IMG/VR virus record: IMGVR_UViG_3300015245_000041
Location: 1 to 59,035 of that record
Reading direction: 5' to 3' (one strand)
Source of the DNA: a virus
Taxonomy: Duplodnaviria; Caudoviricetes
Length of the DNA: 59,035 nt
In this document: positions 5,168 through 50,502 of the stretch, one piece after another
Layout of the letters: each line of letters opens with the position of its first letter
Position numbering within the stretch: the first letter of the stretch is position 1
Notes under the pieces: generated by a model
Databases searched by the model: none
What the model saw: only the letters and a program-made list of their open reading frames with translations
Told to the model about the DNA's origin: nothing
Position numbers and translations under genes: made by a program

Positions 5168-6424
5168 ATGACTAATACTCTTGAACCCGGAGCTAGAGAG
5201 CATTATCTCAGTCGACTTGATGCTGGCGAGATACTAGCTCATAGTCGAGAATGGTATGAAGCTGATGGTTCAGTGGAATTATCGGAAGAAGATAATAATC
5301 GACTTGCAAGTCGACTAGAACAAAAGGCAGTACCTGCTCTTGGGTATTGGTTGGATTGGTCAGGTGCTCGACCCAACCTTACTGTAGCTAAACAGACTGG
5401 GGCTAGAGGTGTATCTCGTTATATAGCACCTGACATTGCTTCGACTGCCTGGAAGCGACTGGGAACTGCTGAGCGTGATCAGATCTTGAAGGTACTCGGC
5501 GATCTTGAGCTTAACTGGGAATGGTATGCAGGTCGATGTCTAGAGGGTGCTGTCGCTGGTCATGCTGATGGTAAAATGATCCTTAAGGCCGCTCAAGCTC
5601 TTAGCTATCCCCATGGTCGAGTCATCCCAGTTAGTCATGATATCGGGACAAACAATGATGTAGCTGTAATTGCTTACTTTAAAGCAGTTAAAGCTGAGCA
5701 GAATGGTATCTATGGGATTACCCCTTATGGATCATTCCACACAGCAACCGTAATTACTCCTGCCGCAGGTCTAATCAATGTCCCCTGGCAAACAGCAGCT
5801 TGGTCTAGTCGTCAAAAAGCTACTAATGCTGCCAAGTATCAGAATACTAACCAGTGGTTTAATGGCACAGTGGATGAGAATGAGATCTGGAAGATGCCTT
5901 TCGGATCTTGGAATCACCCTCTCATTGTACCTAAGCCTCCTGCTCCTCCATCCTCAGGTCCAATTGATTTTGCGAAGGTGGTTGCTTTGTATAAAACCCA
6001 GGCTGAGTTCGAAGCCGCAGTAGAAAGTCAAGTTTTAAATGTTATTAGTTCTGCACTATGGGGTGATCCCCGAGGACTAACTCCTGCACAGATGTGGACA
6101 CTTACTCATGGTCGACCGTCATTAGGTGTTTATGATGGTATGAGCACCTTCTCGCGGGGTCGTTATGTTCGATTTCCTAAAGACCTTAAGTCGCCAACTG
6201 CTATCTATGAGAAGGTCGGAGATAAACTTCTCTGGCTATCAGCCACTGATTGGAAGGAACTCAACACTCCCTTCGCTCTGCTTCCCGTCGTGGATCATTC
6301 CATCACAGGAAATGTTTACAAGCTCTCGGTTGCAGATGGAACTACTGATCCTCGCCAAGCTGTTGTTGGTGTGGAACTACTCAATTATGATGAGGTGAAT
6401 GAAGATGAGGCTCCTACTACGTAG
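5168..6424 (+). CDS. Endolysin, DUF1906/Rv2525c-like (GH25-like) glycoside hydrolase
   Basis: LDWS..RP, GVSRY, NWE, YGS, WQT.AWS, VDEN pattern; Pro linker and C-terminal domain; next to holin. Confidence 0.8.
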   Translation: MTNTLEPGAREHYLSRLDAGEILAHSREWYEADGSVELSEEDNNRLASRLEQKAVPALGYWLDWSGARPNLTVAKQTGARGVSRYIAPDIASTAWKRLGTAERDQILKVLGDLELNWEWYAGRCLEGAVAGHADGKMILKAAQALSYPHGRVIPVSHDIGTNNDVAVIAYFKAVKAEQNGIYGITPYGSFHTATVITPAAGLINVPWQTAAWSSRQKATNAAKYQNTNQWFNGTVDENEIWKMPFGSWNHPLIVPKPPAPPSSGPIDFAKVVALYKTQAEFEAAVESQVLNVISSALWGDPRGLTPAQMWTLTHGRPSLGVYDGMSTFSRGRYVRFPKDLKSPTAIYEKVGDKLLWLSATDWKELNTPFALLPVVDHSITGNVYKLSVADGTTDPRQAVVGVELLNYDEVNEDEAPTT

Positions 6425-6836: not shown

Positions 6837-7828
6837 CAGAATCTGCCTATGGCATTCATGATCATTCTCAACTCAAGCTAGGTAAACAACCACCGGATCC
6901 AACTCGAATGGCTCGAGCTATCAAGATGGCATCGTTCATCGATGTCAAGGCAGTAACTCAGCAAATCGAATATCACCCCCCCACCGATGATAACTATCTG
7001 CAGTACCTAGATGCCAACAAGTCATTTGGCTTGTATGGCAATAATAACTTCGGGGTCTGCGGCCCAACAATGATAGCTAATGGTCGACGACTTAGTAGTT
7101 TTCTCTCAGGTTCATATGATGAGCCCACACAAGACGATGTCTTTGATCTCTATCGTCGTTCTGGGAACCCCAATTTTGACCCTATTACTGGTGCCGATGA
7201 CAAGGGTGTCAACAACCAGACGATGCTTGAGCAAGCACTCAAAACTGGGTTTGGGAAAGATATTGAGGGCAATGAGCGAGAGCTTGTAGCTTTTGCTCAG
7301 GTCGATCACGGTAACCTAAATGAACTTCGAGTCGCAATCTATAAGTTCGATTACGTTTGTGTGGGGGTTGTACTTGATACTGCTCAACAGGATCAGTCTG
7401 ATGGCAGTAATCCCACGTGGAGTTATGTTGATTCATCCACTTGGGGTGGTCACGATATTCTTGTAGCTAAGTATGATTCAGATAGTGCAGTTTGTGTATC
7501 ATGGGCTTTGTTTATTGATATGCTAGATAGCTTTATGTCTCGACAAATGGATGAGGCTTGGGTTGTTATCTGGCGAGATCAGTATGACAAACTGACTGAT
7601 GGGGAGAAAGTAGCATTAGCTCGTGAGTTTGAAGTCGCTACCGGCAAACCCTTTCCCCTCATTCAACCCGATCCCGAGCCCAGTCCAACTCCCTTTACTA
7701 ATCTGGATTTGGAATTGGTTAAAAAAATTGCTGCATCTGGATTCTTAGGGCAGAGTCATCATAAGCCAGCTAATGATGTGGCTCATGCTCTCATGCAATG
7801 GATGATTGCTAAGGGATATGTAAGTTGA
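6833..7828 (+). CDS. Papain-like cysteine peptidase (possible second lysin)
   Basis: NNNFGVC Cys, DKG, WGGH His, VSW. Confidence 0.65.
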   Translation: MTESAYGIHDHSQLKLGKQPPDPTRMARAIKMASFIDVKAVTQQIEYHPPTDDNYLQYLDANKSFGLYGNNNFGVCGPTMIANGRRLSSFLSGSYDEPTQDDVFDLYRRSGNPNFDPITGADDKGVNNQTMLEQALKTGFGKDIEGNERELVAFAQVDHGNLNELRVAIYKFDYVCVGVVLDTAQQDQSDGSNPTWSYVDSSTWGGHDILVAKYDSDSAVCVSWALFIDMLDSFMSRQMDEAWVVIWRDQYDKLTDGEKVALAREFEVATGKPFPLIQPDPEPSPTPFTNLDLELVKKIAASGFLGQSHHKPANDVAHALMQWMIAKGYVS

Positions 7829-7853
7829 CATAGGTTGAGAGATGCTATAGAAT
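7825..7853 (+). promoter_or_regulatory. Sigma70-type promoter, leaderless start
   Basis: TTGACA-N17-TAGAAT, ATG at 7861. Confidence 0.75.
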
Positions 7854-7860
7854 GATGGGT

Positions 7861-8127
7861 ATGACCAAGCTCAGAGAAAAATTCAAAGAAACAATGCAGG
7901 CAGAAGCTAAGAAGCTTGATGCCAAACATACTAAGAAGGCACTGAGACGAGTACTGCCCCACGTTGAGTGGATCTACACCAAGGCCCGCGGACCTTTTGA
8001 AACTCGACTTTTGCTCAGTGCTGGTTGGGAACCAGTTAGTCAATCTGGTGGCGACCTCATGGATAAGATCCTGGGTAGTCAAACCACCGTCACAACTTTG
8101 CTAAGGAAACGAAATCCCAATCTTTAG
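7861..8127 (+). CDS. Hypothetical protein (GWEP.S.S family, like 31139..31510)
   Basis: Own promoter and terminator. Confidence 0.65.
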   Translation: MTKLREKFKETMQAEAKKLDAKHTKKALRRVLPHVEWIYTKARGPFETRLLLSAGWEPVSQSGGDLMDKILGSQTTVTTLLRKRNPNL

Positions 8128-8128
8128 C

Positions 8129-8175
8129 AAAAACAGCAAAGTCTCCTAGGCCACGAGCTTAGGAGGTTTTGTTGT
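8129..8175. terminator. Bidirectional intrinsic terminator
   Basis: CTCCTAGGC/GCTTAGGAG stem flanked by A-rich and T-rich tracts, between convergent arms. Confidence 0.75.
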
Positions 8176-8318
8176 GTGTGAGGGATTATCGATCGAGCGA
8201 TCGCGCCTTATGATGCAATCACGGGATGCCTCAAGAAGAGCTCTAATTTAATCCCTAAAAGGGTAAGATATCTGATTGCATGTGATTTTATGCAGGCGAT
8301 TAGCCATAACTTCAGAGA

Positions 8319-11948: not shown

Positions 11949-14450
11949 TCAGAACGGAGGTTCTGCTATGGCATCGAGTCCTTGCCAATCATAAACGAAG
12001 TTTGGGTGTAGCTCCTGAGCATCTCCCCAGTGATGACCCGCTTTAAGGTCAGCAATGATGGGTATAGTCAGGTTAACTCCGAACTTTTGCCTGAGGATAC
12101 TAACATCTTCCATAGTATCTTTGATTATGGGGAGGGCTGCTCGAACGTAATCTTTTCGGATTTCATAGTTGATTGCGTCATGCACGAGTCCCAGACAATG
12201 ACCTCTGATCCCTTCTTCACGGAAACGCCTATTAATCTCAACCATAGAGATGACAGCCATATCGGAAGCAAAACCCTGAACTGGGCTATTGATTGCTTGC
12301 CGTTCTGCTTCAGCACGAACTCCGGGGTCAGGGGAATAGATATCCGGTAGGTGACGTACTCTACCGAGGGGTGACTGTACTCTACCGTGCTCTGTAACGA
12401 GACGTCGTTGTCGAGCGTGCCAAGTGAGTAACCCAGGGTAGAGGTCAAAGAATACCTTTCTAGCATTTCTAGCACCATCCTCATCGTAGATTACTCCATA
12501 CTTCACAAAGGCTGTGTGGATGAATTTTCTCCATCCCATGCCATAGACAAATCCAAAGTTAATTGCCTTGGCTTTCTTTCTCATATCTTTAGTTACTTTG
12601 GATATGGGGACTTGTGCGTCTCGAGCTGCGGTGGTTAAGTGGATATCTGCACCTTGTTGGTAAAGCGAGATCATATGTCTTTCTCTAGCAATGAAAGCTG
12701 CTATTCGGAGCTCGATCTGACTATAGTCAGCTTCAATGAACACCCATCCGGGTGGCGCTCCAAATAAGCCTCTAATAAAGGGATCTCTAGGTACCTGTTG
12801 GAGGTTGACCCCTCTAGCTCGCCCTCTAGTCCCAGAAATTTTATCTTCATCTGCTTTCCCGGAGGAAAGTCGTCCAGTAACTGTTCCTGCGAGCTTGAAG
12901 TTAGTGTGAATACGATGATTCTCGTCGTAGAGTTCTTCGTAGGCATTGAAAAAACTCGAGATAGCTTTCTGCCACTCAACTCGGTCGAGCATGAATTGGA
13001 CTGCTGGGTGGATTTCCTTGAGTTCAAGGAGAATATCTTCTGCCATAGAAGGTGCTCCAGGCGACCCATCTGCTTTCTCCTTACCTCTCGCGAGAATAGG
13101 TAATTTTAAGTGTTCGAAGAGGAACCATCGCGCGAAGTTGCTTGCGTTGAAATTGATTGTCGAGATTCGGTTCTTAGCATCAGTCGGCCAACTAGGGTCA
13201 TCTTCTGCTGGAAGGAATTGTTTAATCTTGGCTTCAATTTCTTCAAGCTTACTGATAGCTTTTGGTTTCCTGTCTTTAAGTCTTTTAACATCTAACCAAA
13301 TCCCTCGAAGTTCAGAATGTACGAGCTCAGCATTAGCTGGCATAATTTCCAGCATAAAGAGTCTAAGGAGTCTAGGTTGTTTAGTTAGTTCTTCCTTAAG
13401 CTGTTGCTTGATCAAGTACATATACCAGGTATCAAGTACATTGTAATCTAAGACCTCTTTGATGGGCATGTTGAGAAGATCTTTGGTATCTACTCCCCAG
13501 GGTTCCACACCAAGCCTAGCTTGACCTTGAGGTTTCAGACCCTTCTGGATATTCTCGTTGAGCAAGTGAATTGCTAGCAAAGTATCGAACGTGACGGTGG
13601 TTGGGCAGTCGAAAGTTCTCATCCATTTTTCGTCGTACTTGCCGTTATGTGCAACAACTTTCTTGATTTTGCCGATGACCGGCGCCAAGAATTTAAGTAC
13701 AGACCGCCAAGTCTTTCTGAAGGGTGACTCCGGATGATATAGCGGGAGCGCGAACACGAATAGCTTAATTCCACCTGTTGTTCGAATTTCGCAAGTAGCA
13801 CTAAGAGAGATGATTCGTCCATCCGGTTTCCATTCCTCACTATGCGTTTCCACATCGAAGTCAAACTCAACACAATCTTTGAGAATGGTTCTTAGTTTTT
13901 TGAGCTTGTCCGGGGTATCTATGGTATGATACTTAGGCTTTCTAATCTTAGCTTCCCTACCCTGTACCTTATTTGAGAAGAGTAGCAGTTCGGCCATATA
14001 GCCGGGGCGTTGCCCGGGATTGCGATTCACGGCGCTTGGGGATATCGTAGGGATTACGGAAATGCCCGATCGATCAATTACCCGCCCTCGATATTTAGTA
14101 ATCCCAGAATGTCCGGTGGTTGCAAGCAATGCCTCATTACCAAAGGCGAGAATGTAGTCAGGTTCCACCTCCTCGATCTCTTGCTCCAGATAGGGACGAC
14201 AGGCTTTAACGTCAATGGGACTTGAGCTCTGATCGAAGTTTCGGCATTTTAATGCTTGCGTGTAATATACACTATCAAGAGGAAGACCAGCGTCAAGAAG
14301 ATCAGCTTCAAGATTAGCCTGGAACTTATCGCTATTAGGCATACGGCCCACAACCATAACTTTAGCTTTCTTAGGCCCAAAGCCAGGGACACATACATCG
14401 ACTGCCTCTCTGTGAAGCTTGCAATTGGTACAGTTAGGATTTGAGATCAT
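11949..14450 (-). CDS. polA: Family A DNA polymerase with N-terminal degenerate family-4 UDG domain and 3'-5' exonuclease
   Basis: TVTGRLSS, NLQQVPR, ADYSQIELR, KAINFGFVYG, VHDA; Exo DVET, HNGKYD, YNVLD; N-terminal C..C.L, KCR, AC..YL. Confidence 0.95.
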   Translation of the reverse strand: MISNPNCTNCKLHREAVDVCVPGFGPKKAKVMVVGRMPNSDKFQANLEADLLDAGLPLDSVYYTQALKCRNFDQSSSPIDVKACRPYLEQEIEEVEPDYILAFGNEALLATTGHSGITKYRGRVIDRSGISVIPTISPSAVNRNPGQRPGYMAELLLFSNKVQGREAKIRKPKYHTIDTPDKLKKLRTILKDCVEFDFDVETHSEEWKPDGRIISLSATCEIRTTGGIKLFVFALPLYHPESPFRKTWRSVLKFLAPVIGKIKKVVAHNGKYDEKWMRTFDCPTTVTFDTLLAIHLLNENIQKGLKPQGQARLGVEPWGVDTKDLLNMPIKEVLDYNVLDTWYMYLIKQQLKEELTKQPRLLRLFMLEIMPANAELVHSELRGIWLDVKRLKDRKPKAISKLEEIEAKIKQFLPAEDDPSWPTDAKNRISTINFNASNFARWFLFEHLKLPILARGKEKADGSPGAPSMAEDILLELKEIHPAVQFMLDRVEWQKAISSFFNAYEELYDENHRIHTNFKLAGTVTGRLSSGKADEDKISGTRGRARGVNLQQVPRDPFIRGLFGAPPGWVFIEADYSQIELRIAAFIARERHMISLYQQGADIHLTTAARDAQVPISKVTKDMRKKAKAINFGFVYGMGWRKFIHTAFVKYGVIYDEDGARNARKVFFDLYPGLLTWHARQRRLVTEHGRVQSPLGRVRHLPDIYSPDPGVRAEAERQAINSPVQGFASDMAVISMVEINRRFREEGIRGHCLGLVHDAINYEIRKDYVRAALPIIKDTMEDVSILRQKFGVNLTIPIIADLKAGHHWGDAQELHPNFVYDWQGLDAIAEPPF

Positions 14451-14745
14451 CGTAGTCCTTGAAGGTCAAATTGATGAAATGCGGAAGTCGTTCGTCAAAA
14501 GAAGCTACTACGCAACCTTCACCCCCAATGAAGTTGGTGTGTAACATGTTAGCTAGTCGTCGCCATGTCATCATTTTGTCTTTGAGCTGTGAGCATTCAG
14601 GTCCAGGTGCTCCATGCTTAACTGCATCCTCCCATTGTACATGAGCATTGTTTTCCCAAGCACGGTATTGTTTAATATACTTTTCAATCTTAGCTCGAGC
14701 CCAAGCTAGAGCTTCGGGATCACTGTCGAACTTGGAATCAGTCAT
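14434..14745 (-). CDS. Hypothetical protein
   Basis: Overlap-coupled in operon. Confidence 0.7.
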   Translation of the reverse strand: MTDSKFDSDPEALAWARAKIEKYIKQYRAWENNAHVQWEDAVKHGAPGPECSQLKDKMMTWRRLANMLHTNFIGGEGCVVASFDERLPHFINLTFKDYDDLKS

Positions 14746-15212
14746 GGTGATACCTTATCATCCTTTGCTACTCTCATCAATACCTGTCGGAATAGGGTCA
14801 GACCACCCATGTCTCGATGATTCTCTCGATAGATTACCCGTCCAATACCCGCATTGATAATAAGCATGGCACAAGTTGTGCACGGTATGCGTGTTGTGTG
14901 GAGTTCAGTATCCTGGAGAGCTACACCATGTCGAGCGGCGAAAGCTATGGCGTTTGCTTCAGCATGTACTGATATGGTACAATACTGACCTGCTGGACAA
15001 TTAGTATCATGTTTAGGAGAACTTTGACCTATAGAACAATTGCAAGTATGGTCACAGTGATCAATGCCAGCAGGAGCTCCATTATAACCTTGTACCAGGA
15101 TTCTGCCGTCTCGGGATATGACACAACCTACATGAGCTCGTGAGCAGGTAGATCGTTCGGACCATATTCGAGCAGTCCTCATGAGAAGATCATCTCGTTG
15201 GGGTCTATCCAT
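14742..15212 (-). CDS. dCMP deaminase
   Basis: RSTC.R..VGC, GYNG, HAEANA, PC..C. Confidence 0.92.
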   Translation of the reverse strand: MDRPQRDDLLMRTARIWSERSTCSRAHVGCVISRDGRILVQGYNGAPAGIDHCDHTCNCSIGQSSPKHDTNCPAGQYCTISVHAEANAIAFAARHGVALQDTELHTTRIPCTTCAMLIINAGIGRVIYRENHRDMGGLTLFRQVLMRVAKDDKVSP

Positions 15213-16075
15213 TAGTACCACGAATCCTTATAGAGATTAGGATGAGTTGCTCCAATAGCATCTTCTGCTGAATGCCTAGCTTCAATAAGAGGTACATCCC
15301 CAACAAAGAGGTGAAGAGATGAGATATGCATGAGTAAAGTACCGGGTTCAGCTCCAATCTTGCCAGCGACCCATTGCCCCAATCTCATGGTCATATAGAT
15401 ATCATCTGAGAAATGGCGAACGAAGTCACAACTACGAATGAAATATGTAACATCAAGTATTCCATCTCGTTGTAAGAAATGATATCCTAGACTACAGGGA
15501 ATTCGTTGTCCGTCTCTAGCACCCGTGTCTTCTGGGAAGAAGACTGGTAAGTAAGCTTGACGAGTAAGAGGATGTTGTTGGAGTTGAACCACAACATCGT
15601 TAAGATCACCATATTCATAACGAATTCCCATGTGTGGTACCCAGATTTGTCGTCCATTTGGGGCTTTGTTTCCTACATTGGCGTATCGTGGCCAGTATCG
15701 TTCGGGGTACGTGTGAGAAAACTTCTCACCTTCTTTATGACGGGCATTGCTTTTGACTGCGTAAGGCCACCATGCCTCACTGGGGGGAGGATTCATAGGT
15801 TCCCCCACAACCCGCTCTTGGAATTGATCTTCCGCCCAAGGTAAATTAGCACCAAGAGGACCAGCTAAGTCCTCTTCAAGTTGGTGGTCTGGGGGAATAG
15901 GAATCTCCAGAATTACATGTGCGAGTTCTTTAGAAACTAAAGTGGGATTATCCGAAACATCCTGAGCATGCCATTGATCTACTGGAACAGGCGGGGCTTT
16001 GAGTAAACTTAGCTCTAGCTTATGCTTTATGGCATCGAATTGATGAATAGTAGCAGCCTCGTAGTGAGTTATCAT
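15212..16075 (-). CDS. Thymidylate-synthase-fold enzyme (dCMP-type Asp)
   Basis: TY.ER, TRQA, PC, RSCDFVRHFSDD, SLHLF. Confidence 0.85.
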   Translation of the reverse strand: MITHYEAATIHQFDAIKHKLELSLLKAPPVPVDQWHAQDVSDNPTLVSKELAHVILEIPIPPDHQLEEDLAGPLGANLPWAEDQFQERVVGEPMNPPPSEAWWPYAVKSNARHKEGEKFSHTYPERYWPRYANVGNKAPNGRQIWVPHMGIRYEYGDLNDVVVQLQQHPLTRQAYLPVFFPEDTGARDGQRIPCSLGYHFLQRDGILDVTYFIRSCDFVRHFSDDIYMTMRLGQWVAGKIGAEPGTLLMHISSLHLFVGDVPLIEARHSAEDAIGATHPNLYKDSWY

Positions 16076-17043
16076 TCAGTAATCTCCAAAGGGAGCCCAA
16101 GGCATCGGAAGTCTAGGGTATTGATCGGTATTGAAGGTAAAGGGTCATAGTGTTTGAAGAACTCCTTAGGTTCCCCCTCATTGTCATAACTCCAGCCAGC
16201 AAAACTTTTAGCTTTCTCCACACCAAGAACTTCAGCATGCCACCGTCGACGAATGCGGCGATAGGTGTTATAGGTCATGTCACCATAGGTGAGACCGTCT
16301 GCATCCTCCTGCATAACTTTGCGAAGCCATTTACGACTAAGTCTAAGTGCAGGAGAGTTACGGATGTGATCTTGCTCTGTATCACCAAGCTTGGACAAGG
16401 GCTTGATCAAAAGTCGTCGGTAGAAGGTACGCATTTCGACATTGGGATTACTGAGCAAGAATGCCAGTGATTTGAAGTTGTGCCACTGAATCGACTCGTT
16501 GTACCAGACAAACTTGAAAGTAGATACATCCACATCCATCTCGTTGGCAAGGTAACGAGCTACCATCCAGGCGACTGATAAATCCAGTGCACCGATGTAC
16601 CCTAAGTAAGAAGTGCGACTGTGCAAACTGATTGTCGGTGTGGGAAGTGCTTTGTAGCTGATCGTCAGCATGCACGAACCCCAGCGGCGCGATTCCCGAT
16701 TCGTATGGCCTGTAGCTGCACCACCACGGGGCTTCACTATCTTGGTTCTTATGACGGCTGTACCCCGGCCATCTAATCCAATCTTCGATGGTACTGCTTC
16801 GATCCATGCCTCCAACTCTCCTGGGTCCAGATACTGACGGCACATCATTGTCCATCGAGACTTAGTCAACCACATAGACTTTAAATCAAAATCCCAATCC
16901 ATGCTATTAGTTGAGGCTATGATGCCATGTCTCTGAACATCAACAGTAGTTACCATATCTACTTGATCTAGACTAGCAGTAACTAAAGACTCGCACATCT
17001 CTTCATGTAGTTTGGTTAGCGTAGGTGCTTGATAAGTATACAT
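16072..17043 (-). CDS. Second, highly divergent thymidylate-synthase-fold protein
   Basis: GSCMLTISY...HSRTSYLGYIGALD mirrors the TS PC...RSxD...N/D core; adjacent to the first. Confidence 0.6.
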   Translation of the reverse strand: MYTYQAPTLTKLHEEMCESLVTASLDQVDMVTTVDVQRHGIIASTNSMDWDFDLKSMWLTKSRWTMMCRQYLDPGELEAWIEAVPSKIGLDGRGTAVIRTKIVKPRGGAATGHTNRESRRWGSCMLTISYKALPTPTISLHSRTSYLGYIGALDLSVAWMVARYLANEMDVDVSTFKFVWYNESIQWHNFKSLAFLLSNPNVEMRTFYRRLLIKPLSKLGDTEQDHIRNSPALRLSRKWLRKVMQEDADGLTYGDMTYNTYRRIRRRWHAEVLGVEKAKSFAGWSYDNEGEPKEFFKHYDPLPSIPINTLDFRCLGLPLEITE

Positions 17044-17315
17044 TAGTCTGGGTAGTGTACCCTTTCTATGTTATCATCTCTCCAAGACTTCATAGCCTCA
17101 CGGATACTATGCAGTTCTTGAAGGAAGTCAGGACTACTAGGTCCATAGTTTTTAACTTGAGCAATGTAGTAATTCAGAGTCGGAAGGGCGAAGATATCTT
17201 TAGCTCGAATAACGAAGACGGGCTCATCCCGTTCATCAGCTTTGTTAAGGATATCTTGAGCAGACTTAGAAGTCTTGGCCTTACTATACGGAATTCTATA
17301 CGGTCGATTTGTCAT
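17043..17315 (-). CDS. Hypothetical protein
   Basis: GAGGAG RBS; DEPVFVIRAKD..A..L..Y...PD motif. Confidence 0.75.
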   Translation of the reverse strand: MTNRPYRIPYSKAKTSKSAQDILNKADERDEPVFVIRAKDIFALPTLNYYIAQVKNYGPSSPDFLQELHSIREAMKSWRDDNIERVHYPD

Positions 17316-17880
17316 CTCGCTCCTCATCTACCTCATCCATAATATAGTCTTCCAAACAATCCATAGTACAGAAAGTTTTGTCAGGGTAATTAGTGTTCTT
17401 GCACCATCGCCACATGTCTGTCTGCTTTAGTTCCTTATGACATTGAGGACATTGTCTAACAATTTCCTCTTGGAACCATCCATAGATTCTAAGTAATCCC
17501 TCAATGTTAGGAGCTACCCAATCTGGGGGTTTAATAACATCATAGCTTGATCCTCGCTTAGAATTCCCGCCATTAGCGTTAGCTCTCTTTTTCTCCATGT
17601 TAGCTGTTTGTACAAGATTCCATCCCTGGACCCAAGGGTAACCCTTTAGGTGGGCAGTTCCATAAGCGACATAAGATAAATCTAGCAGTGCATCAAACAT
17701 ACCTGCTTCATCACCGATGGCGTAAGCATCTTCAAACTCTTGTATCTCTTCCTTAAGAAATTTGATTCTAAACGCCATTAGTGCTGGATCAACATCTCGA
17801 GGTCCAGGAGCAGAGTCTATGGTAGTATTATCTAAACCAAACTTATGGTGAAATAAACCCACATCGTGAAAGTCAGACAT
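17296..17880 (-). CDS. MazG/PRA-PH-like dNTP pyrophosphohydrolase with C-terminal Zn finger
   Basis: EEIQE, DALLDL.YV..G, ANMEK, KPPDW..P; CPQC...C...C tail. Confidence 0.85.
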   Translation of the reverse strand: MSDFHDVGLFHHKFGLDNTTIDSAPGPRDVDPALMAFRIKFLKEEIQEFEDAYAIGDEAGMFDALLDLSYVAYGTAHLKGYPWVQGWNLVQTANMEKKRANANGGNSKRGSSYDVIKPPDWVAPNIEGLLRIYGWFQEEIVRQCPQCHKELKQTDMWRWCKNTNYPDKTFCTMDCLEDYIMDEVDEERDDKSTV

Positions 17881-18416
17881 TAGGTCCCCGTCTTTAAGAA
17901 GTAAATGATACTACTCAATATGTCATCACGAGTCTCAGGCTTAGTATAATCCCACACCGAGGTGGGTGTGTGGTAATGGTCGATGGCTGCTCGGACTCGG
18001 TAGTGGGCGTAGATTTGATCTATATCAGCTCTTACGGTCATATTAGTCTCATCTTGCCAGACATTTTTCTGTACTGTTTCAAGAGGAGGTAAGCAATAGA
18101 CGATATATGGCTGTCGACTGTAGAATATTCCTAGTTCCATAGCTAACCAGTCATAGCTATCAAATCCGGGAGAGGGAGTATTGGGTCTAAAAACTGCTCC
18201 ATAGATACATTCTGAAATTAATCTGTGCCGGTCATAAAGGACTCTCCCGTCATTACCTCGGTTATTATCATCTTCGACCCATTGTTTTAAGTCAACAGTA
18301 GTAGTCATATCTTCATTAACTACCTTAGGTTCTACTGTAAGACCTAGTTTCTGCTCAAAGACTCTGATAAGGCTGGTTTTGCCCGCACCATCCGGCCCTT
18401 CTACGATGATACTCAT
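17880..18416 (-). CDS. dNMP (thymidylate-like) kinase
   Basis: IIVEGPDGAGKT, DRH..SE.IYG, YCLPP. Confidence 0.85.
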   Translation of the reverse strand: MSIIVEGPDGAGKTSLIRVFEQKLGLTVEPKVVNEDMTTTVDLKQWVEDDNNRGNDGRVLYDRHRLISECIYGAVFRPNTPSPGFDSYDWLAMELGIFYSRQPYIVYCLPPLETVQKNVWQDETNMTVRADIDQIYAHYRVRAAIDHYHTPTSVWDYTKPETRDDILSSIIYFLKTGT

Positions 18417-18607
18417 ATTTTCTTCATCGCTTCCTTAACGGGATCAGGTTCAGTTGCAGTAATCTTCTGAATCTTACCTCCCCAGGTGTTTTGGATTCGG
18501 ATTTGGGCATGAGGACTAACACCCATATGTTCAAGAGTATCTATCAGTTCTTGCTTGGTATTGATCTGCTTCTTAATCACAACTTCCCGAGCGCCATACG
18601 TCATCAT
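18413..18607 (-). CDS. Hypothetical protein
   Basis: GAGGAGG RBS; ATGA overlap. Confidence 0.65.
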   Translation of the reverse strand: MMTYGAREVVIKKQINTKQELIDTLEHMGVSPHAQIRIQNTWGGKIQKITATEPDPVKEAMKKI

Positions 18608-18913: not shown

Positions 18914-20518
18914 CTATAAACCCCGCAATCTAAGTAGTCGTTCAGGACTAGTAATCATGGCTTTACCCACGTTACCATCCTCTAAGAGAGTTTCGTAGAG
19001 AAGCTCATCTGCAGTGCCTCGCGCTAGGAAAAACTCATGGAAGGTGGGTTTATCGCTCAGGGCGATGCGATCACTAAATTGCCGAAAATTGACCCAGGAA
19101 GGCGTGAGGCTATACCATTGCATGATAGACGCACATGATAGGTCGATTGCCTCACCTGCTGCAGCGGGTTGTCCAATGAAGACCGCCCCACCCGAAGTCT
19201 TGGGGAATTGTTTCCAGGCATACTCTCTAGCTTCGTGTCTCATACCCCCCTGAATAGTAAAGGTAGGTATCTTCATACTCTTAAGCATTTTCTGTAGCCT
19301 ATAGATATCACCCTTCCAGAGTGCTCCGATGACTACCTTTTCATCTAGTTCCATAAGATCTTCTAGACGGGATCTAATAGCTCTTAGTTTCTCCGATCCA
19401 ATAACCACCAAACGACCGTGCGGGTACTGGGGAGATGGAGTTGTTTTACTGAGCCCAGATGTGATCTGACGAAGCCTGAGTCCTTGTACGAGCTGAATGG
19501 AAGCCTCGGTGATCTCTCCAGTACGGATCTTAGCAACCATCTCCGCAGCCATCTGATCGTAGATAGTACCACTTTCATTGTCTTCTAGGTCTACATGAAT
19601 AACCTGGTTAGTTTGCTTGGGGAGATCATAGCATTCATCTCTGGTGATACTGAAGGAATCCAGATGTATCAACCTATGAAGTTCTTGTTCGTTAATATTA
19701 CGAAGCCACTTTTGATACCCTCCCATGTTCAACCAGCGACCGTACTGCTGCTTAAACTCAGTAAATGTAATACCCTCGAAGCGTTCGGGGTTGAGAAATT
19801 TCCACTGAGAATAGATATCAAACAAGCGTTTTTTCTTAGTGACTACTGTGCCCGTGAGAATGGTTCTATAGTCTGCGATCGGGCCCAGGGAATGCATCAT
19901 GGTTGATTTACGTGCACTGGGGCTCTTGATACGATGAGACTCATCTAGGGTGATAAGCTGGGGTTGCCAAGCAATGAGCTTCTTCTTGATTGTGAATCGA
20001 CCACCACGAGACCGAGATCGCTTGATAGCCTGGGTGAATGGATGTTTGTTAAACTGACGGACTTCTCCGGGTTTATAAGTATGTTTGACCTTAGCTGTGT
20101 GGAAATGCTGAATCTTACCGCACTTCTTGCATACTTCTAACTTCCAAGGTATGATAGCTCCGGCCGTAGATAGGGCATCATAGTTGACAATGAGAAAATC
20201 AACTAAGTCATCACCATATCTGGGGAGTTCATGATCAGTTTTCTTACGTGTTTTACGATCCCATATCGTAAGTCTGTAGGGGTAGGGGCAGTTTGCCTCG
20301 ATCTCATCTTTCCACACAGCCAAGCCTGAGACTGGGGTAAAGACTAAAACTCTATTCACTTTACCAGCAGCATGAAGAATACTGGCATAGTCAATATTAA
20401 CTTTAGTCTTCCCAGTCCTGGGCTCCATCAGCAAAGCGCCGCCAAAACCAGTCTCCAGTAATTTTTTCACTGCTAATACTTGGTGACGATATGGTCGTTT
20501 TTTCCATCGATACTTCAC
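18914..20518 (-). CDS. SNF2-like SF2 helicase
   Basis: PY.HQ, MEPRTGKT, DESH, LTGT, SGL/KL, AGEAIDL. Confidence 0.9.
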   Translation of the reverse strand: MKYRWKKRPYRHQVLAVKKLLETGFGGALLMEPRTGKTKVNIDYASILHAAGKVNRVLVFTPVSGLAVWKDEIEANCPYPYRLTIWDRKTRKKTDHELPRYGDDLVDFLIVNYDALSTAGAIIPWKLEVCKKCGKIQHFHTAKVKHTYKPGEVRQFNKHPFTQAIKRSRSRGGRFTIKKKLIAWQPQLITLDESHRIKSPSARKSTMMHSLGPIADYRTILTGTVVTKKKRLFDIYSQWKFLNPERFEGITFTEFKQQYGRWLNMGGYQKWLRNINEQELHRLIHLDSFSITRDECYDLPKQTNQVIHVDLEDNESGTIYDQMAAEMVAKIRTGEITEASIQLVQGLRLRQITSGLSKTTPSPQYPHGRLVVIGSEKLRAIRSRLEDLMELDEKVVIGALWKGDIYRLQKMLKSMKIPTFTIQGGMRHEAREYAWKQFPKTSGGAVFIGQPAAAGEAIDLSCASIMQWYSLTPSWVNFRQFSDRIALSDKPTFHEFFLARGTADELLYETLLEDGNVGKAMITSPERLLRLRGL

Positions 20519-21974: not shown

Positions 21975-22577
21975 TTACTCGTCGTCGTCCAGCTCGAGCT
22001 CATCTTCGTCATCGTCATCTTCGACGACCGGAGCAGGCTTTGCCTTCTTCTTTTTGGTGGCCTTGACTCCCTGCTTGGCCTTCTCGGCTCGAATCTTCTC
22101 GTTGCGCTCCTTCAGCGCGTCGAGCTTCTCCTTCTTATCCTGGTCCAACTCCCCAGCGTTGAAAGCCTTGATGATGGCCTTGACCTCAGGATCCTTCGGT
22201 CCGCTCCAGTCATACCGAGCGCGGTTCCCGGCAACAATCTCCCGGTCGACTCGGCCCTTACCATCCCGGGCCATGCGACGAATCAGGTTGCGCAGTCCGC
22301 GGGCGTCAACCTTCTTGCCCGTGGTCTTGATCAGGTACTGCACCAGATCGCTGACTCCGAAGGTGACCTCCTGTTGAGCCCCGGTCTTCTTCTTGGTCTT
22401 CGACTTGGGAGCGACCTCTTCGACCTCGTCCTCTTCGAGCTCCTCGAGATCCTCGTCCTCGTCGTCCTCAACTTCGTCCTCTTCGACCTCGTCATCTACT
22501 TCGAGCTCTTCGACCTCAGCTTCGACCTTCTTGGCTGGAGCCTTCTTGGCTGGCCGGCGTTTCGTAGCAGTCGCCAC
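21975..22577 (-). CDS. Putative DNA-binding protein with basic/acidic tails
   Basis: LR.LIR...RARYDW core; GAAGGAG RBS; GC3-rich codons. Confidence 0.8.
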   Translation of the reverse strand: MATATKRRPAKKAPAKKVEAEVEELEVDDEVEEDEVEDDEDEDLEELEEDEVEEVAPKSKTKKKTGAQQEVTFGVSDLVQYLIKTTGKKVDARGLRNLIRRMARDGKGRVDREIVAGNRARYDWSGPKDPEVKAIIKAFNAGELDQDKKEKLDALKERNEKIRAEKAKQGVKATKKKKAKPAPVVEDDDDEDELELDDDE

Positions 22578-26621: not shown

Positions 26622-26813
26622 ATGGCATCCGAATTCGAACGAGGCTTAGTTCAGGGTAGAAAGGAGGGCCGTACTCAAGAACGTAAGGAAATACTAGATT
26701 GGCTGGAAGAGCAATACCTGAAGAAGACTGTCTTACGGGGGTCAGAGAAAGGGAAAGCTATTCTGAAGCTTGCTGGCGAACTCTCGAAGGTGATGAAGTC
26801 TAGTGGACTATGA
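26622..26813 (+). CDS. Hypothetical protein, first gene of primase operon
   Basis: Strong RBS; overlaps primase start. Confidence 0.7.
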   Translation: MASEFERGLVQGRKEGRTQERKEILDWLEEQYLKKTVLRGSEKGKAILKLAGELSKVMKSSGL

Positions 26814-28818
26814 GAAGCAGCTCAGTATAATTAAGCGCGCATGGGGGCGTACACAGAAAGGTTATTGCTTCTTCCCCTGGATTGATCGAGAAGAGCAGGC
26901 AGCAGCAGGAATTCGACGCGCAGGATTCTACGAAGGACCAGCCTTTAAGTGGCCTCAGGACAAAGATAAGATCTTGTCTCACATGGCTCAGCACGAGGAG
27001 CATGATCTATATTGGTGCCCCTCTCTTTTTGAGTATGAACAACGACGTACTGATGTTGCGATGGATGAGTGCGCTCTTTGGGCAGATTTAGATGAGATTA
27101 ACCCCAAGGAAATACCCGAGGAATATCCTCCGACTGTTGCCTGGCAGACATCCCCAGGACGCTATCAGGCTCTCTGGATTCTATCGATGGGTGATATCCA
27201 GGGTGCGAGTTGGCCCGGTAACGAGAATCAAAGACTGACATACTTTCTCGGCGCTGACCTCGGCGGGTGGGATACCACACAGCTGTTGAGGATACCGGGT
27301 TGGACCAATCATAAGCTGGAGTATCGTGATAAAGTATCTGGTGCATCGCCTCAAGGTAAGGTTCTATGGACTAATGGGCGCACATACCTGTCTGATGACT
27401 TCGAGGACTTGCCGGAGGTGCGCGGTGCCGGTGCAGCCAACGATCTCACCGACGCAGTTATCCAAGAGATCGAGGCAATCGAGCATAACACGGTATTGGC
27501 CCGAGTAAAGCTTAAGCTTACTCAACGTATTCGAGATTACATCAGGGCTCGACAGACTTCTGGTGATCGCAGCAATGTACTCTGGGAGATTGAACGATCC
27601 TTGGCTGATGCTGGTTGTAGTCTCGCAGAGATCGTTTCAATCGTGAAGAGCACGGTATGGAATAAGTATGCTGGCCGTTCGGATGAAGATAAACGACTTA
27701 TCATAGAGGCTAATAAAGCTATCGCACAACGATCCACACAGAAAGTAGAAGAAGATGAAGTTCTTAGAGAACATGCTCAACAGTCAGTTCCTCAACAAGC
27801 TGATCTTATGTTGAAATTAGTTAAACCTCCTCGATGGTTGGTTAAAAATATCCTTACTCAAGGTGGAGTTGGGTTTATAGCTGGAGAACCTAAGTCTTAT
27901 AAATCATGGTTCGGTCTTGATTTAGCCATCAGTGTTGCTACGGGTACCCGCTTTCTTAACCACTTTGACATTGAGAAGCCCGGACCAGTACTATATCTAC
28001 AAGAAGAAGATAGCCCAGTAACTATCAAGTCTCGATGGGGAACCATCAAGCGGGGTAAGAAACAAATGCCCCTCTCGGTACAGGATGGCTATCTTTACCT
28101 GGAACCTACACAACCTCTGGATGATGAAACACTTATTAAGGTCGACATGAATCTTCAGGGCGGTCTTGTTTTATCCGAAGATGTCTGGCAAGAATGGCTT
28201 GATGAACAATTACGGCGGGGTTTTACCATGGCTTCCGACGAACCCTATAGACTGATTATTGTAGACACTCTTATGATGACCGCGGGTCTTGTACAGGAGA
28301 ATCAGTCTCAGGAGATGACTACTAAGTATTTTAAACCTCTCAAAGAACTTGCTCGTAAGCATGAGGTAGCACTTATCTTAGTACATCATATGAATAAAAA
28401 TGGCGAAGCTAAACGCGCTGGTCAACGTATGTTAGGCAGTGTTGCTAATCATGCCTGGGCTGAGGATTCTATGTATCTTACACCTCGATCTGACGGGGTA
28501 GATATGGAGACAGAAAGTAAGACATGGAAAAAAGCTAAGTATACTGTCAATATTCATGAGAAGGGCTGGTATCCGGTAGTTAGTCCGGAGAATAGTACCA
28601 GGACCAGTAAATCTAGCCTCGGTAGTGACGGGATCCTCGAGGCTTTACAGGTGCTAGGTGATCGCGCGCACACCCGCGCGCTCGCTGAACAACTAGGTAT
28701 GCAGTGGCCCAAGATGCGCCGTTCTCTCACTAATAAGCTCGAGCACCGAGTCGCCCAGGGTCAGCTTGTGAAACAGCAAAACACCCCACAAAGCCAGATA
28801 CTATGGGTTCTCGCATGA
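26803..28818 (+). CDS. Primase-helicase (RepB-like primase + AAA_25/RepA helicase)
   Basis: LWADLD, TSPGRYQALW, LLRIPG..NHK; GEPKSYKS, EED, IVDT, VHH, GS. Confidence 0.9.
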   Translation: MDYEKQLSIIKRAWGRTQKGYCFFPWIDREEQAAAGIRRAGFYEGPAFKWPQDKDKILSHMAQHEEHDLYWCPSLFEYEQRRTDVAMDECALWADLDEINPKEIPEEYPPTVAWQTSPGRYQALWILSMGDIQGASWPGNENQRLTYFLGADLGGWDTTQLLRIPGWTNHKLEYRDKVSGASPQGKVLWTNGRTYLSDDFEDLPEVRGAGAANDLTDAVIQEIEAIEHNTVLARVKLKLTQRIRDYIRARQTSGDRSNVLWEIERSLADAGCSLAEIVSIVKSTVWNKYAGRSDEDKRLIIEANKAIAQRSTQKVEEDEVLREHAQQSVPQQADLMLKLVKPPRWLVKNILTQGGVGFIAGEPKSYKSWFGLDLAISVATGTRFLNHFDIEKPGPVLYLQEEDSPVTIKSRWGTIKRGKKQMPLSVQDGYLYLEPTQPLDDETLIKVDMNLQGGLVLSEDVWQEWLDEQLRRGFTMASDEPYRLIIVDTLMMTAGLVQENQSQEMTTKYFKPLKELARKHEVALILVHHMNKNGEAKRAGQRMLGSVANHAWAEDSMYLTPRSDGVDMETESKTWKKAKYTVNIHEKGWYPVVSPENSTRTSKSSLGSDGILEALQVLGDRAHTRALAEQLGMQWPKMRRSLTNKLEHRVAQGQLVKQQNTPQSQILWVLA

Positions 28819-48923: not shown

Positions 48924-48955
48924 CAATTAGTATAGAATAAGGAGGAAGACCCAAT

Positions 48956-50125: not shown

Positions 50126-50142
50126 TAGGGAAGGAGTAGATA

Positions 50143-50499: not shown

Positions 50500-50502
50500 G
50501 CC

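Follow-up and report, generated by a model that had tools for sequence, protein, structure and literature searches.

Gene content and organization of the locus

The window, meaning the whole 59,035-nt stretch of DNA that was analysed, is an IMG/VR record with direct terminal repeats that is rated 100% complete, and an exact repeat of 77 nt at the genome ends agrees with the initial annotation of a complete genome. The phage is uncultured, and the only assembled contigs that contain its genome come from one soil metagenome. Genome composition (46.8% G+C, 27.8% T) carries no signal for or against base modification. The genes considered here are as follows:

18914..20518, minus strand: SNF2-family helicase, conserved upstream neighbour of the cassette
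17880..18416, minus strand: P-loop kinase, 178 aa, phage thymidylate/dNMP kinase family annotation
17296..17880, minus strand: MazG/PRA-PH-type all-alpha NTP pyrophosphatase, 194 aa, with a Cys-rich C-terminal extension (PF01503)
17043..17327, minus strand: 94-aa ORF without a family, overlapping the 3' end of the MazG gene by 32 nt
16072..17043, minus strand: TS1, divergent thymidylate-synthase-fold protein, 323 aa (phrog_13667 and AlphaFold fold)
15212..16075, minus strand: TS2, Asp-type thymidylate synthase (TS) homologue, 287 aa (PF00303)
14742..15221, minus strand: dCMP-family zinc deaminase, 159 aa (PF00383)
14434..14745, minus strand: 103-aa ORF without a family, overlapping both neighbours and linking deaminase to PolA
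11949..14450, minus strand: PolA, family A DNA polymerase with 3'-5' exonuclease and N-terminal family-4 UDG-like domain, last in the run (PF00476, PF01612, PF03167)

From kinase to PolA, successive genes overlap by 1, 32, 1, 4, 10, 4 and 17 nt, and the cassette bounds (14742-18416) match ORF boundaries on the minus strand. The earlier description of a coupled run into polA is therefore correct, since all neighbours overlap (by 1-32 nt), and its calls of a kinase, a MazG-like enzyme, a small protein, two TS-fold proteins and a deaminase are upheld by Pfam and PHROG profiles and an AlphaFold model.

The kinase matched phrog_761 ('thymidylate kinase', E 9.4e-17, residues 1-171) and gave only a P-loop match in Pfam, NCBIfam and the PDB; we propose that it phosphorylates a modified dNMP and/or dTMP, a specificity taken solely from the PHROG label. 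The MazG-like protein (PF01503, E 6.4e-10; phrog_671, E 1.2e-20) has a core of 86 residues that is 42% identical to the PaMx74 pyrophosphohydrolase (E 8e-14), and its nearest solved relative is DR2231 (E 0.22), which we take to be a dUTPase. In the relatives Muddy, Shrew and Serbin the pyrophosphatase slot is filled by a PF08761 dUTPase_2 protein, a point of likeness to T4, whose gp56 dCTPase also matches PF08761. The proposed activity of the MazG/PRA-PH enzyme is that of a dCTP (and dUTP) pyrophosphatase. The deaminase (PF00383, E 7.8e-21; phrog_174, E 2e-46) is 30% identical to that of PaMx74 (E 5e-10), and its proposed role is to deaminate dCMP, or a modified dC nucleotide, for the thymine branch. 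Neither the 94-aa nor the 103-aa ORF has a family in Pfam, PHROG or NCBIfam. PolA was recognized by PF00476 (E 4.2e-76), PF01612 and the N-terminal PF03167 UDG domain, and the upstream helicase by PF00176 (E 8.4e-15) and PF00271.

TS2 resembles enzymes that act on dCMP

TS2 scores above the Pfam threshold for PF00303 (28.8 bits, cut-off 24.3) and far under the cut-offs of the NCBIfam TS equivalogs (43.7 against 174.55; 15.8 against 325). Alignment to E. coli ThyA showed that C146 and D169 are kept (as C194 and D217), whereas five other positions are substituted (N177 to D225, L143 to R191, H147 to S195, G173 to H221 and Y209 to F257), the second Arg of the SRR motif is also lost and the ThyA C-terminus is absent. 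The top PDB sequence matches were the N229D mutant of L. casei TS and, second, MilA (E 1.7e-7), and the structures closest to TS2, HY126 dCMP hydroxylase and MilA, act on cytosine. Among the best 80 of 300 confirmed IMG/VR relatives, to which all counts per 80 loci refer, C194, D225 and R191 are kept in 80/80 loci and the Asp169 equivalent in 78/80. The dCMP-type Asp noted initially is thus confirmed for TS2, as D225 aligned to E. coli N177. Asp at position 177 together with a non-His residue at 147 best separates modified from unmodified metavirome contigs (PMC8670742), and the Asn-to-Asp change turns ThyA toward dCMP (cited in PMC13326640; also PMC8670742). TS2 is proposed to be no bona fide thymidylate synthase and to modify dCMP at C5.

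TS1 belongs to an uncharacterised phage family

TS1 matched phrog_13667 ('unknown function', E 5.6e-106) and had no sequence match in Pfam, NCBIfam or the PDB. Its AlphaFold model (pLDDT 95.8) retrieved only TS-family structures with Foldseek, the best being 9iqu, a phage dCMP hydroxylase (E 7.8e-8), to which VIA gave a Z of 15.8 (rmsd 3.6 Å, 185 residues), compared with 15.2 to MilA and about 12 to ThyA structures. The claim of two TS-fold proteins therefore holds, for TS1 by model, Foldseek and VIA and for TS2 by PF00303. Across 75 diverse TS1 sequences Y71, G122, C124, R143 and W180 are invariant and R63, S142, D154 and R263 nearly so, and C124, R143, D154 and Y71 are each found in 68/69 ORFs from the IMG/VR loci. 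Residue equivalences rest on spacing and fold, because the hhalign match of TS1 to the TS2 profile was not significant (probability 1.2%). This applies to D154, whose assignment as a second dCMP-type Asp is a likely reading, and to a Tyr three residues past R143, which by spacing would occupy the place where the folate-contacting Asp169 of ThyA follows Arg166. TS1 had been treated as a duplicate TS; it is instead an uncharacterised family that keeps the catalytic Cys and is carried by 85 phage records. From its model, we regard it as a candidate second pyrimidine-modifying enzyme, and as the best candidate for the 'missing' or hidden modifier because it appears to be a second Asp-type TS-fold enzyme keeping Cys124, Arg143, Asp154 and Tyr71.

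These residues bear on a conventional explanation, an ordinary dTTP module in which TS2, though divergent, would truly convert dUMP to dTMP, with deaminase and dUTPase providing its substrate, and TS1 would be a degenerate structural or regulatory paralogue. Its support comes from the PF00303 score of TS2 and from the annotation of cultured relatives, which describes the cassette parts as ordinary dTTP supply ('thymidylate synthase' for TS2 in all those inspected, with neighbours annotated dUTPase and thymidylate kinase). We consider it very improbable, given the Asp at 177 in 80/80 loci and the effect of the Asn-to-Asp change on ThyA, the lack in TS2 of His147, Tyr209, the second SRR Arg and the C-terminus, the low equivalog scores, and the retention of the TS1 Cys, Arg, Asp and Tyr in 68/69 ORFs, which fits poorly with a degenerate protein. 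In one relative (locus L088) a ThyX adjoins TS2, so that there, at least, dTMP synthesis is not the task of TS2.

Conservation of the cassette and a possible route to canonical DNA

PolA lies downstream of TS2 in 76/80 loci and the deaminase adjoins TS2 in 74/80, being absent beside it in 6/80. TS1 was found in 67/80 loci (69/80 after a second-round HMM), the upstream SNF2 helicase homologue in 62/80 and the kinase homologue in 61/80, while a homologue of the 94-aa ORF occupies the same slot in 5/80 and one of the 103-aa ORF was found in 0/80. The cassette is also present in Muddy, in phages of Gordonia, Streptomyces and Curtobacterium and in most of the 80 metavirome loci, and its gene order is identical in Muddy, Shrew, Zuko and Serbin.

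The main rival to a modified genome, which we hold to be unlikely, is canonical DNA made by an unusual thymidylate route, in which TS2 would methylate dCMP and the deaminase would turn all 5-methyl-dCMP/dCTP into dTMP/dTTP; the kinase would be a thymidylate kinase, the pyrophosphatase would serve dUTP hygiene, and host C would become T for an A+T-richer phage. The genome is indeed lower in G+C (46.8%, with 27.8% T) than the cassette regions of its relatives (51-58% G+C), the cultured relatives are phages of actinobacteria, the phage encodes neither ThyA nor ThyX, and the kinase family carries a thymidylate kinase label. In-cis deaminases have also been proposed to yield dTTP from 5-methyl-dC nucleotides (bioRxiv 10.1101/2024.12.05.627091, accessible part), and the literature searched on cultured phages with TS1, a scope exclusive of restriction gels and phage-database pages, yielded no report of modified DNA. 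However, 5mC does enter the DNA of Xp12 and PaMx74 (same preprint, accessible part), the route leaves the conserved, catalytic-type TS1 without a role, and reductive methylation by TS2 is hard to square with the absence of DHFR and with the loss from TS2 of a C-terminal segment found in both ThyA and the PaMx74 TS. The relative with both ThyX and TS2 also speaks against it.

Search for other modifying enzymes

A Pfam scan of 60 window ORFs, covering the genome outside 48474-57187 (structural) and ORFs of at least 90 aa with few exceptions (among them the 64-aa ORF at 18413-18607), recognized no glycosyltransferase, DNA kinase or methyltransferase; many of these ORFs match no family, and for DNA 5-hmU kinases the scan was a general one, not aimed at that family. 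Six-frame scans with PF00145, PF01555, PF00535 and PF00534 returned nothing with their positive controls detected, whereas the controls for PF09198 and PF12851 stayed silent. ThyA, ThyX and DHFR were not found in the genome, where TS2 is the sole PF00303 match. As far as these scans reach, the absence of a visible hypermodifier stands; it would be no puzzle for a 5mC or 5hmC product, as in Xp12 and PaMx74, which need none, and TS1 is a candidate modifier.

The scans also bear on a reading in which thymine is replaced, alone or with cytosine: TS2 would make 5-hydroxymethyl-dCMP, the deaminase would convert it to 5-hydroxymethyl-dUMP, and the virion would carry hmU or a derivative, the 'deaminated product' left open by the initial annotation. 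The adjacency of Asp-type TS and deaminase in 74/80 loci is compatible with this, as are the short C-terminus of TS2, like that of hydroxymethylases such as T4 gp42, and the 5hmdU that seven metavirome deaminases of the same neighbourhood type yielded from a 5hmdC pool in vivo (bioRxiv 10.1101/2024.12.05.627091, accessible part). PolAs of T-modified phages, SPO1 among them, likewise carry a UDG-like domain (PMC13697223). The domain here matches T. thermophilus UDG 1ui0 (E 4.3e-14) but has lost the motif-A Glu and motif-B His, and thus appears nearer a group described as inactive in that work than the SPO1/SP15 groups. Moreover, no dTTP-excluding enzyme, 5-hmU DNA kinase or aGPT-Pplase-type gene was recognized among the scanned ORFs, and 6/80 loci have no deaminase beside TS2; we regard replacement of thymine as improbable.

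A proposed pathway to C5-modified deoxycytidine

We favour, with a probability of about 0.55 and on sequence grounds, the reading that the operon replaces phage dC before replication with a C5-substituted dC (5mC, 5hmC or a new base). The MazG/PRA-PH enzyme would hydrolyse dCTP (and dUTP) to the monophosphate, both removing the canonical triphosphate and supplying the substrate. Cys194 of TS2 would attack C6 of dCMP while Asp225 reads the cytosine face, and the one-carbon unit of methylene-tetrahydrofolate would be transferred to C5, giving 5-hydroxymethyl-dCMP or 5-methyl-dCMP. We lean to non-reductive, hydroxymethyl-type chemistry because TS2 has no ThyA C-terminus and an Arg in the place of Leu143, and the phage has no DHFR. 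TS1 may perform a further or parallel step on the cytosine nucleotide via Cys124, Arg143, Asp154 and Tyr71; the kinase would phosphorylate the modified dNMP, presumably a poor substrate for the kinases of the host; the deaminase would channel some of the dC or modified dC nucleotides into thymine synthesis, the genome encoding neither ThyA nor ThyX; and PolA would build the modified nucleotide into DNA. The modify-phosphorylate-deplete logic suggested earlier fits the gene set and the Asp-type active site, which also admit canonical DNA by the unusual dTTP route.

Several points weigh against the favoured reading. A module for ordinary dTTP supply would likewise consist of a kinase, a pyrophosphatase, a TS and a deaminase. 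TS2 shares no more than 25% identity with its PaMx74 counterpart, DR2231 is the nearest solved MazG relative, and the literature searched on phages with TS1 gave no report of modified DNA. Opposing the lean to hydroxymethylation, tested metavirome TSs of the same neighbourhood mostly gave 5-methyl-dCMP (5/7; bioRxiv 10.1101/2024.12.05.627091, accessible part).

Comparison with known systems

T4 and SPO1 had been named as models. SPO1 shares pre-replicative modification by a TS homologue, deaminase and pyrophosphatase, and it makes hmU by a dUMP-type enzyme; given that TS1 and TS2 are both of the Asp type, it is less apt as a model. The T4 hmC pathway (gp56 dCTPase/dUTPase, gp42 dCMP hydroxymethylase, gp1 dNMP kinase, cd dCMP deaminase, glucosyltransferases) stands as a model for its deplete-modify-phosphorylate logic and for a TS homologue with Asp at 177 and a short C-terminus. 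Unlike T4, the phage has a PRA-PH rather than a PF08761 pyrophosphatase, Arg rather than Asp at position 143 and no glucosyltransferase found (PF00535 and PF00534 scans; PF09198 control silent); T4 in turn encodes DHFR and a genuine thymidylate synthase, both absent here, and has nothing equivalent to TS1.

The closest systems are Xp12 and PaMx74, which replace C by 5mC (bioRxiv 10.1101/2024.12.05.627091, accessible part). A PRA-PH pyrophosphatase, an Asp-type TS and a deaminase occur here in the PaMx74 gene order, no hypermodifying enzyme is needed, and thymine can be provided through the deaminase where the genome has neither ThyA nor ThyX. The differences from PaMx74 are the low TS identity given above, the ThyA-like C-terminus kept there, Asn there at position 143, the extra TS1 gene between pyrophosphatase and TS2, and the place of PolA, which directly follows the cassette here but lies over 5 kb away in PaMx74; the kinase belongs to the operon only here, and PaMx74 and DLP4 both encode DHFR. 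In the accessible part of the preprint, a TS lies near 104/149 deaminases on modified contigs and 17/277 on unmodified ones, and the five top domains co-localised with the deaminase are Thymidylat_synt, MafB19-deam, PRA-PH, DNA_pol_A and DNA_pol_A_exo1 (bioRxiv 10.1101/2024.12.05.627091). Each of these five occurs within 3 kb of the deaminase in the present phage. Modified-cytosine contigs are tied there to a dCMP-family deaminase, Asp177 TS, PRA-PH and PolA (also PMC8670742).

The flavin-dependent 5-hydroxy-dCMP synthases (RB69 gp48, DLP3 gp80, HY126 AfhB; 9iqu, 9iqc) are top structural matches of TS1 and TS2, and are likewise short Asp177-type TS homologues with dCMP as substrate. They are marked by D169N (PMC13326640), so that the Asp217 retained in TS2 counts against this type; TS1 has a Tyr at the Asp169 place, as judged by spacing, and no arabinosyl- or glycosyltransferase genes accompany the cassette. 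MilA, the CMP 5-hydroxymethylase of mildiomycin biosynthesis (5b6d, 5jnh), is also Asp-type and a top-tier structural match of both proteins, but it belongs to an antibiotic pathway of bacteria, acts preferentially on the ribonucleotide and shares about 18% identity or less. A looser analogue is AXL3, with a PRA-PH protein, an Asp-type TS (by alignment) and a deaminase, whose DNA was cut by 2/37 enzymes, both with A/T-only sites (PMC7504290, accessible part).

Organization of the cassette

The genome is rated 100% complete in IMG/VR (59,035 bases, direct terminal repeats) and an exact 77-nt repeat is common to both of its ends, which bears out its initial annotation as a complete genome. That annotation had also placed a run of coupled genes at 14742-18416, coordinates that agree with the minus-strand ORF boundaries, and because each gene overlaps its neighbour (by 1 to 32 nt between successive genes), we treat the cassette as one translationally coupled run, as had been claimed. 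Its members and the adjoining genes are as follows.

Genes of the cassette and of the region leading into the polymerase
17880-18416, minus strand: P-loop kinase, 178 aa
17296-17880, minus strand: MazG-like protein, 194 aa
17043-17327, minus strand: small ORF between the MazG-like protein and TS1, 94 aa
16072-17043, minus strand: TS1, divergent thymidylate-synthase-fold protein, 323 aa
15212-16075, minus strand: TS2, Asp-type thymidylate synthase (TS) homologue, 287 aa
14742-15221, minus strand: deaminase, 159 aa
14434-14745, minus strand: small ORF between the deaminase and PolA, 103 aa
11949-14450, minus strand: polymerase (PolA), 833 aa

In Pfam, the MazG-like protein matches PRA-PH (E 6.4e-10) and the deaminase matches dCMP_cyt_deam_1 (E 7.8e-21), while PolA combines DNA_pol_A and 3'-5' exonuclease domains with a UDG domain at its N-terminus. 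The kinase matches PHROG 761, 'thymidylate kinase' (E 9.4e-17), and its P-loop is the sole part with a match in Pfam, NCBIfam and the PDB.

Two of these proteins have further structural features. The C-terminal third of the MazG-like protein (17296-17880, minus strand) is a Cys-rich extension (CxxC ... C ... C) that follows the PRA-PH core, and in the relative Shrew the dUTPase_2 protein of this slot weakly matches a zinc ribbon (PF13248, E 0.0057). The family-4 UDG-like domain of PolA (13941-14450, minus strand) aligns with the T. thermophilus UDG 1ui0 (E 4.3e-14), and the two share aligned Cys residues. Its motif A reads VVGRMPN against IVGEGPG in the glycosylase, and its motif B carries Ser against the glycosylase His. 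The domain may be inactive, or re-purposed for reading bases, as described for the N4-like group in PMC13697223.

The active site of TS2

TS2 is the only match to PF00303 (Thymidylat_synt) in the window. Its score of 28.8 bits barely clears the cut-off of 24.3, with a match confined to profile positions 108-219 of 266, and it lies far below all NCBIfam TS equivalog cut-offs (43.7 vs 174.55, 15.8 vs 325 and 15.8 vs 327). In the PDB, TS2 is closest by sequence to the L. casei thymidylate synthase mutant N229D, with the CMP hydroxymethylase MilA next. To assign residue equivalences, TS2 was aligned with E. coli ThyA, T4 gp42 and the PaMx74 TS.

Active-site positions of E. coli ThyA and their equivalents in TS2
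Cys146 (catalytic): Cys194, kept
Arg166-Ser167: kept
Asp169: Asp217, kept
Asn177 (reads the uracil face): Asp225
Leu143: Arg191
His147: Ser195
Gly173: His221
Tyr209: Phe257
SRR motif: TRQ

After the conserved His (ThyA His207, TS2 His255) there follow 32 residues in TS2, compared with 57 in E. coli ThyA, ~63 in PaMx74 and ~30 in T4 gp42; over the window protein and 80 locus ORFs together, the median length of this C-terminal tail is 20 residues. Of the hallmarks of a bona fide ThyA, TS2 thus has Cys146 and lacks Asn177, a score above the family cut-offs, the C-terminal segment, His147 and Tyr209; its aligned residues are instead those expected of cytosine-acting TS homologues, i.e., Cys146 plus Asp at position 177. 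In a survey of the best 80 of 300 confirmed IMG/VR relatives, found with the TS2 alignment, Cys194, Asp225 and Arg191 were each conserved in 80/80 loci, and the Asp217 position was Asp in 78 and Glu in two. The alignment and this invariance substantiate the Asp-type active site noted in the initial annotation. The alternative that the cassette is simply a dTTP module, in which TS2 is a true if divergent thymidylate synthase, is contradicted by the invariance of Asp225 and by the several ThyA hallmarks that have been lost, and we consider it very improbable.

The substitutions in TS2 can be set against published diagnostic positions. According to PMC13326640 (a 2026 NAR paper on 5-hydroxycytosine), N177D marks dCMP as the substrate, L143D/E correlates with hydroxymethylation and D169N marks flavin-dependent 5-hydroxy-dCMP synthases; TS2 has N177D, Arg at 143 and a retained D169 (Asp217), and thus does not carry the flavin-dependent mark. 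In the eLife MetaGPA paper (PMC8670742), no Pfam family is tied more strongly to modified-cytosine contigs than the TS domain, and positions 177 and 147 best separate modified from unmodified contigs; TS2 departs from the ThyA residue at each of these two positions. Since the C-terminus is missing, position 143 is charged and the window has no DHFR, we lean towards non-reductive, hydroxymethyl-type chemistry for the putative TS2 product, although 5mC was what most of the metavirome enzymes assayed so far produced. The window likewise has no ThyX.

Comparison with known cytosine-modifying neighbourhoods

The gene neighbourhood resembles one described in a 2024 NEB preprint (10.1101/2024.12.05.627091), the available text of which reports TS genes within 3 kb of dCMP-family deaminases in 104/149 cases on modified contigs vs 17/277 on unmodified contigs, with Thymidylat_synt, MafB19-deam, PRA-PH, DNA_pol_A and DNA_pol_A_exo1 as the top co-localised domains. 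The same text states that 5/7 TSs of that neighbourhood made 5-methyl-dCMP, that in-cis deaminases are able to turn 5-methyl-dC nucleotides into thymidine nucleotides, and that C is fully replaced by 5mC in Xp12 and PaMx74. All five of the top domains lie within 3 kb of the deaminase in the window, whereas the polymerase of PaMx74 is >5 kb away, and for this reason it is plausible that the co-localisation statistic draws in part on cassettes of the present type.

Like 5mC replacement systems of the Xp12/PaMx74 type, the window has a PRA-PH pyrophosphatase, an Asp-type TS and a dCMP-family deaminase in cis, and the PaMx74 trio is homologous to that of the window (pyrophosphatase 42% identity over the core, deaminase 30%, TS2 25%). 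Stenotrophomonas phage AXL3, which combines PRA-PH with an Asp-type TS and a deaminase, is a looser analogue; its DNA was cut by only 2/37 restriction enzymes, both with A/T-only sites (PMC7504290).

Conservation in related phages

Megablast found no nucleotide similarity to the cassette in phage records, while tblastn placed TS1 in 85 of them (Gordonia 68, Mycobacterium 9, Streptomyces 4, Microbacterium 2, Curtobacterium 1 and Mycobacteroides 1), and TS1 proteins form 877 clusters at 90% identity and 186 at 50% identity. The order helicase, kinase, pyrophosphatase, TS1, TS2, deaminase, PolA is common to Shrew, Muddy and Zuko. Muddy gp45 (7667-8209, plus strand, in the Muddy locus L002) is annotated as 'hypothetical protein' and proved to be a dCMP-family deaminase (PF00383, E 2.5e-18; MafB19-deam, E 1.3e-10); Muddy therefore has the full cassette, from gp49 to gp44. 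Serratia phage Serbin and Brevundimonas phage Polewnik share the layout and have a TS2 homologue. The ORFs in their TS1 slots gave weak probabilities against the TS1 profile (Serbin gp51 9%, the 279-aa ORF of Polewnik 36%) with an aligned GxC motif, and are possible TS1 homologues on this sequence comparison. AXL3 gp29, a 327-aa protein in the TS1 position, was not recognisable as TS1 (hhalign probability 0.4%).

Among the 80 surveyed loci, TS2 was accompanied by PolA in 76, the deaminase in 74, TS1 in 67 (69 with a second-round HMM), an SNF2 helicase in 62 and the kinase in 61. TS1 is frequent and not obligatory, given that 11 loci carry TS2 without detectable TS1, four of which retain both deaminase and PolA. 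The pyrophosphatase slot was of the PRA-PH type in 10/80 loci and held a single ORF cluster in 34/80, the tested representative of which is a dUTPase_2 (PF08761), a family also matched by the T4 gp56 dCTPase/dUTPase. No hypermodifier was found among ten representative ORFs, one per cluster, from the kinase-PolA gaps of relatives, all of which were dUTPase_2, DPBB_1, ThyX, TSCPD or had no match. The ThyX gene (PF02511, E 6.2e-40) lies directly upstream of the TS2 homologue at 5216-5932 (plus strand) of locus L088, and the phage at this locus therefore has a thymidylate synthase separate from TS2.

TS1 as a predicted thymidylate-synthase-fold enzyme

TS1 has no match in Pfam or NCBIfam and none in the PDB, whether by sequence or as a 75-sequence profile, and its PHROG (phrog_13667) is listed as 'unknown function'. 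Its AlphaFold model (pLDDT 95.8, pTM 0.92) retrieved the phage HY126 dCMP hydroxylase (9iqu) in Foldseek with E 7.8e-8, among 51 matches at E <= 0.001. VIA-align gave Z 15.8 to 9iqu (rmsd 3.6 A, 185 residues), 15.2 to MilA and ~12 to ThyA structures, with Z >= 8 for 396/1000 aligned chains and the TS family making up all 50 entries listed. The predicted fold thus matches TS-family structures over the catalytic core, in support of the earlier description of two TS-fold proteins. The nearest named ESM Atlas clusters, with PF00303 in 30% and 89% of their members (scores 0.93 and 0.90), offer a lead consistent with the TS fold.

Across 75 diverse members of the TS1 family, Tyr71, Gly122, Cys124, Arg143 and Trp180 are invariant and Arg63, Ser142, Asp154 and Arg263 near-invariant, and in ORFs from the metavirome loci Cys124, Arg143, Asp154 and Tyr71 are each conserved in 68/69. 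The residue spacing is close to that of ThyA (Cys-Arg 19 vs 20, Arg-Asp 11 vs 11). An hhalign comparison of the TS1 and TS2 profiles has a probability of 1.2%, not significant alone, and its sole alignment pairs C124, R143 and D154 with C194, R214 and D225. From the modelled fold, the conserved residues and the ThyA-like spacing, we infer that TS1 is probably an active, cytosine-type enzyme. The residue three after Arg143 is Tyr in 52/69 ORFs, where ThyA has the folate-contacting Asp169, and because of this replacement, at a position assigned by spacing, TS1 may use folate in other than the usual way. A complex prediction for TS2 and TS1, both entered as alignments, scored 0.10 (mark 0.32) and is neutral with regard to a heterodimer.

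A speculative and rather unlikely scenario is that the two enzymes act sequentially on cytosine nucleotides, TS2 adding a one-carbon group and TS1, with its Cys kept and its folate Asp lost, re-activating C6 to yield a C5 group new to DNA. If true, a new DNA base would be made wholly at the nucleotide level with no post-replicative hypermodifier, and its carriers would be a large group comprising the 877 TS1 clusters and the 85 phage records, with the therapeutic mycobacteriophage Muddy among them. Our literature searches yielded nothing on the TS1 family and no report of DNA modification in Muddy-like phages, and the available text of PMC12908700 and PMC13314858 holds nothing relevant to either. 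Although the TS fold is among the best understood in enzymology, its TS1 branch is unstudied and may carry out new pyrimidine chemistry.

Likely function of the cassette

The best-supported reading, to which we assign a probability of roughly 0.55, is that the cassette would constitute a pre-replicative cytosine-replacement pathway, by analogy with Xp12/PaMx74 and T4. The pyrophosphatase would clear dCTP and supply dCMP, TS2 would modify C5, the kinase would phosphorylate the TS2 product and PolA would incorporate it in its modified form; the deaminase would feed the thymine branch in a genome lacking its own thymidylate synthase. Deamination might otherwise act on 5-hydroxymethyl-dC nucleotides, with hmU replacing thymine, which we judge improbable.

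The initial annotation saw no hypermodifier, and this stands for the families scanned. Pfam scans of 60 ORFs, many of them without any family and so a possible place for a hidden modifier, found no glycosyltransferase, methyltransferase or nucleotide-sugar enzyme, and six-frame scans of the window found none of two DNA methyltransferase families or of the GT1 and GT2 glycosyltransferase families, with positive controls detected in each case; the scans for T4 beta-glucosyltransferase and Tet/JBP families had silent controls and carry no information. The absence takes on a different meaning on two counts: 5mC or 5hmC as the product would require no hypermodifier, and TS1, which is conserved and uncharacterised, is a candidate for a further step at the level of the nucleotide.

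Genome composition gives no usable signal for or against modification. Under a Markov model, 4-mer palindromes with G/C were observed 2439 times (2587.5 expected) and A/T-only ones 846 times (915.5 expected), and even the ten 6-mer palindromes most depleted by observed/expected ratio each occur at least once. Over the whole window, the observed/expected ratio is 0.76 for CpG and 1.05 for TpG/CpA. At 46.8%, the G+C content of the window is below that of the Shrew, Muddy, Serbin and Polewnik cassette regions (51-58%). Both this value and the absence of ThyA and ThyX would fit canonical DNA whose dTTP is supplied in an unusual way, from dCMP via 5-methyl-dCMP to dTMP; such a route leaves no role for TS1, and it appears unlikely to us.

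If the cytosine-replacement reading is true, a large, mostly soil-dwelling phage group replaces cytosine in its DNA, and this group takes in cultured Gordonia, Streptomyces, Microbacterium and Curtobacterium phages as well as the therapeutic phage Muddy. The restriction and CRISPR sensitivity, sequencing, engineering and host-range prediction of these phages would all be affected. Several carriers of the full cassette are held in culture collections, so that the question is directly testable.

Additional genes in the window

In a search of sequencing runs, the phage turned up only in assembled Logan contigs of one soil metagenome (3 entries). Its genome encodes a 671-aa protein (26803-28818, plus strand) in which a RepB-type primase domain (PF16793) is fused to an AAA_25/DnaB-like helicase domain, likely the replicative primase-helicase. 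A 200-aa protein with long Asp/Glu and Lys runs (21975-22577, minus strand; phrog_16498, unknown function) is overlapped on the opposite strand by a 245-aa Leu-rich shadow ORF. The nucleotide-binding YAcAr/SLOG domain (PF10686, E 3.1e-14) is found in a 123-aa protein at 36925-37296 (minus strand), and a 128-aa prokaryotic JAB-domain protein (43741-44127, plus strand; PF14464, E 3.3e-10) is encoded just upstream of the large ORFs at 44802-47800, themselves ahead of the scaffold gene. A 266-aa protein encoded in the tail-fibre region (4352-5152, plus strand) contains collagen triple-helix repeats (PF01391, E 1.9e-12).
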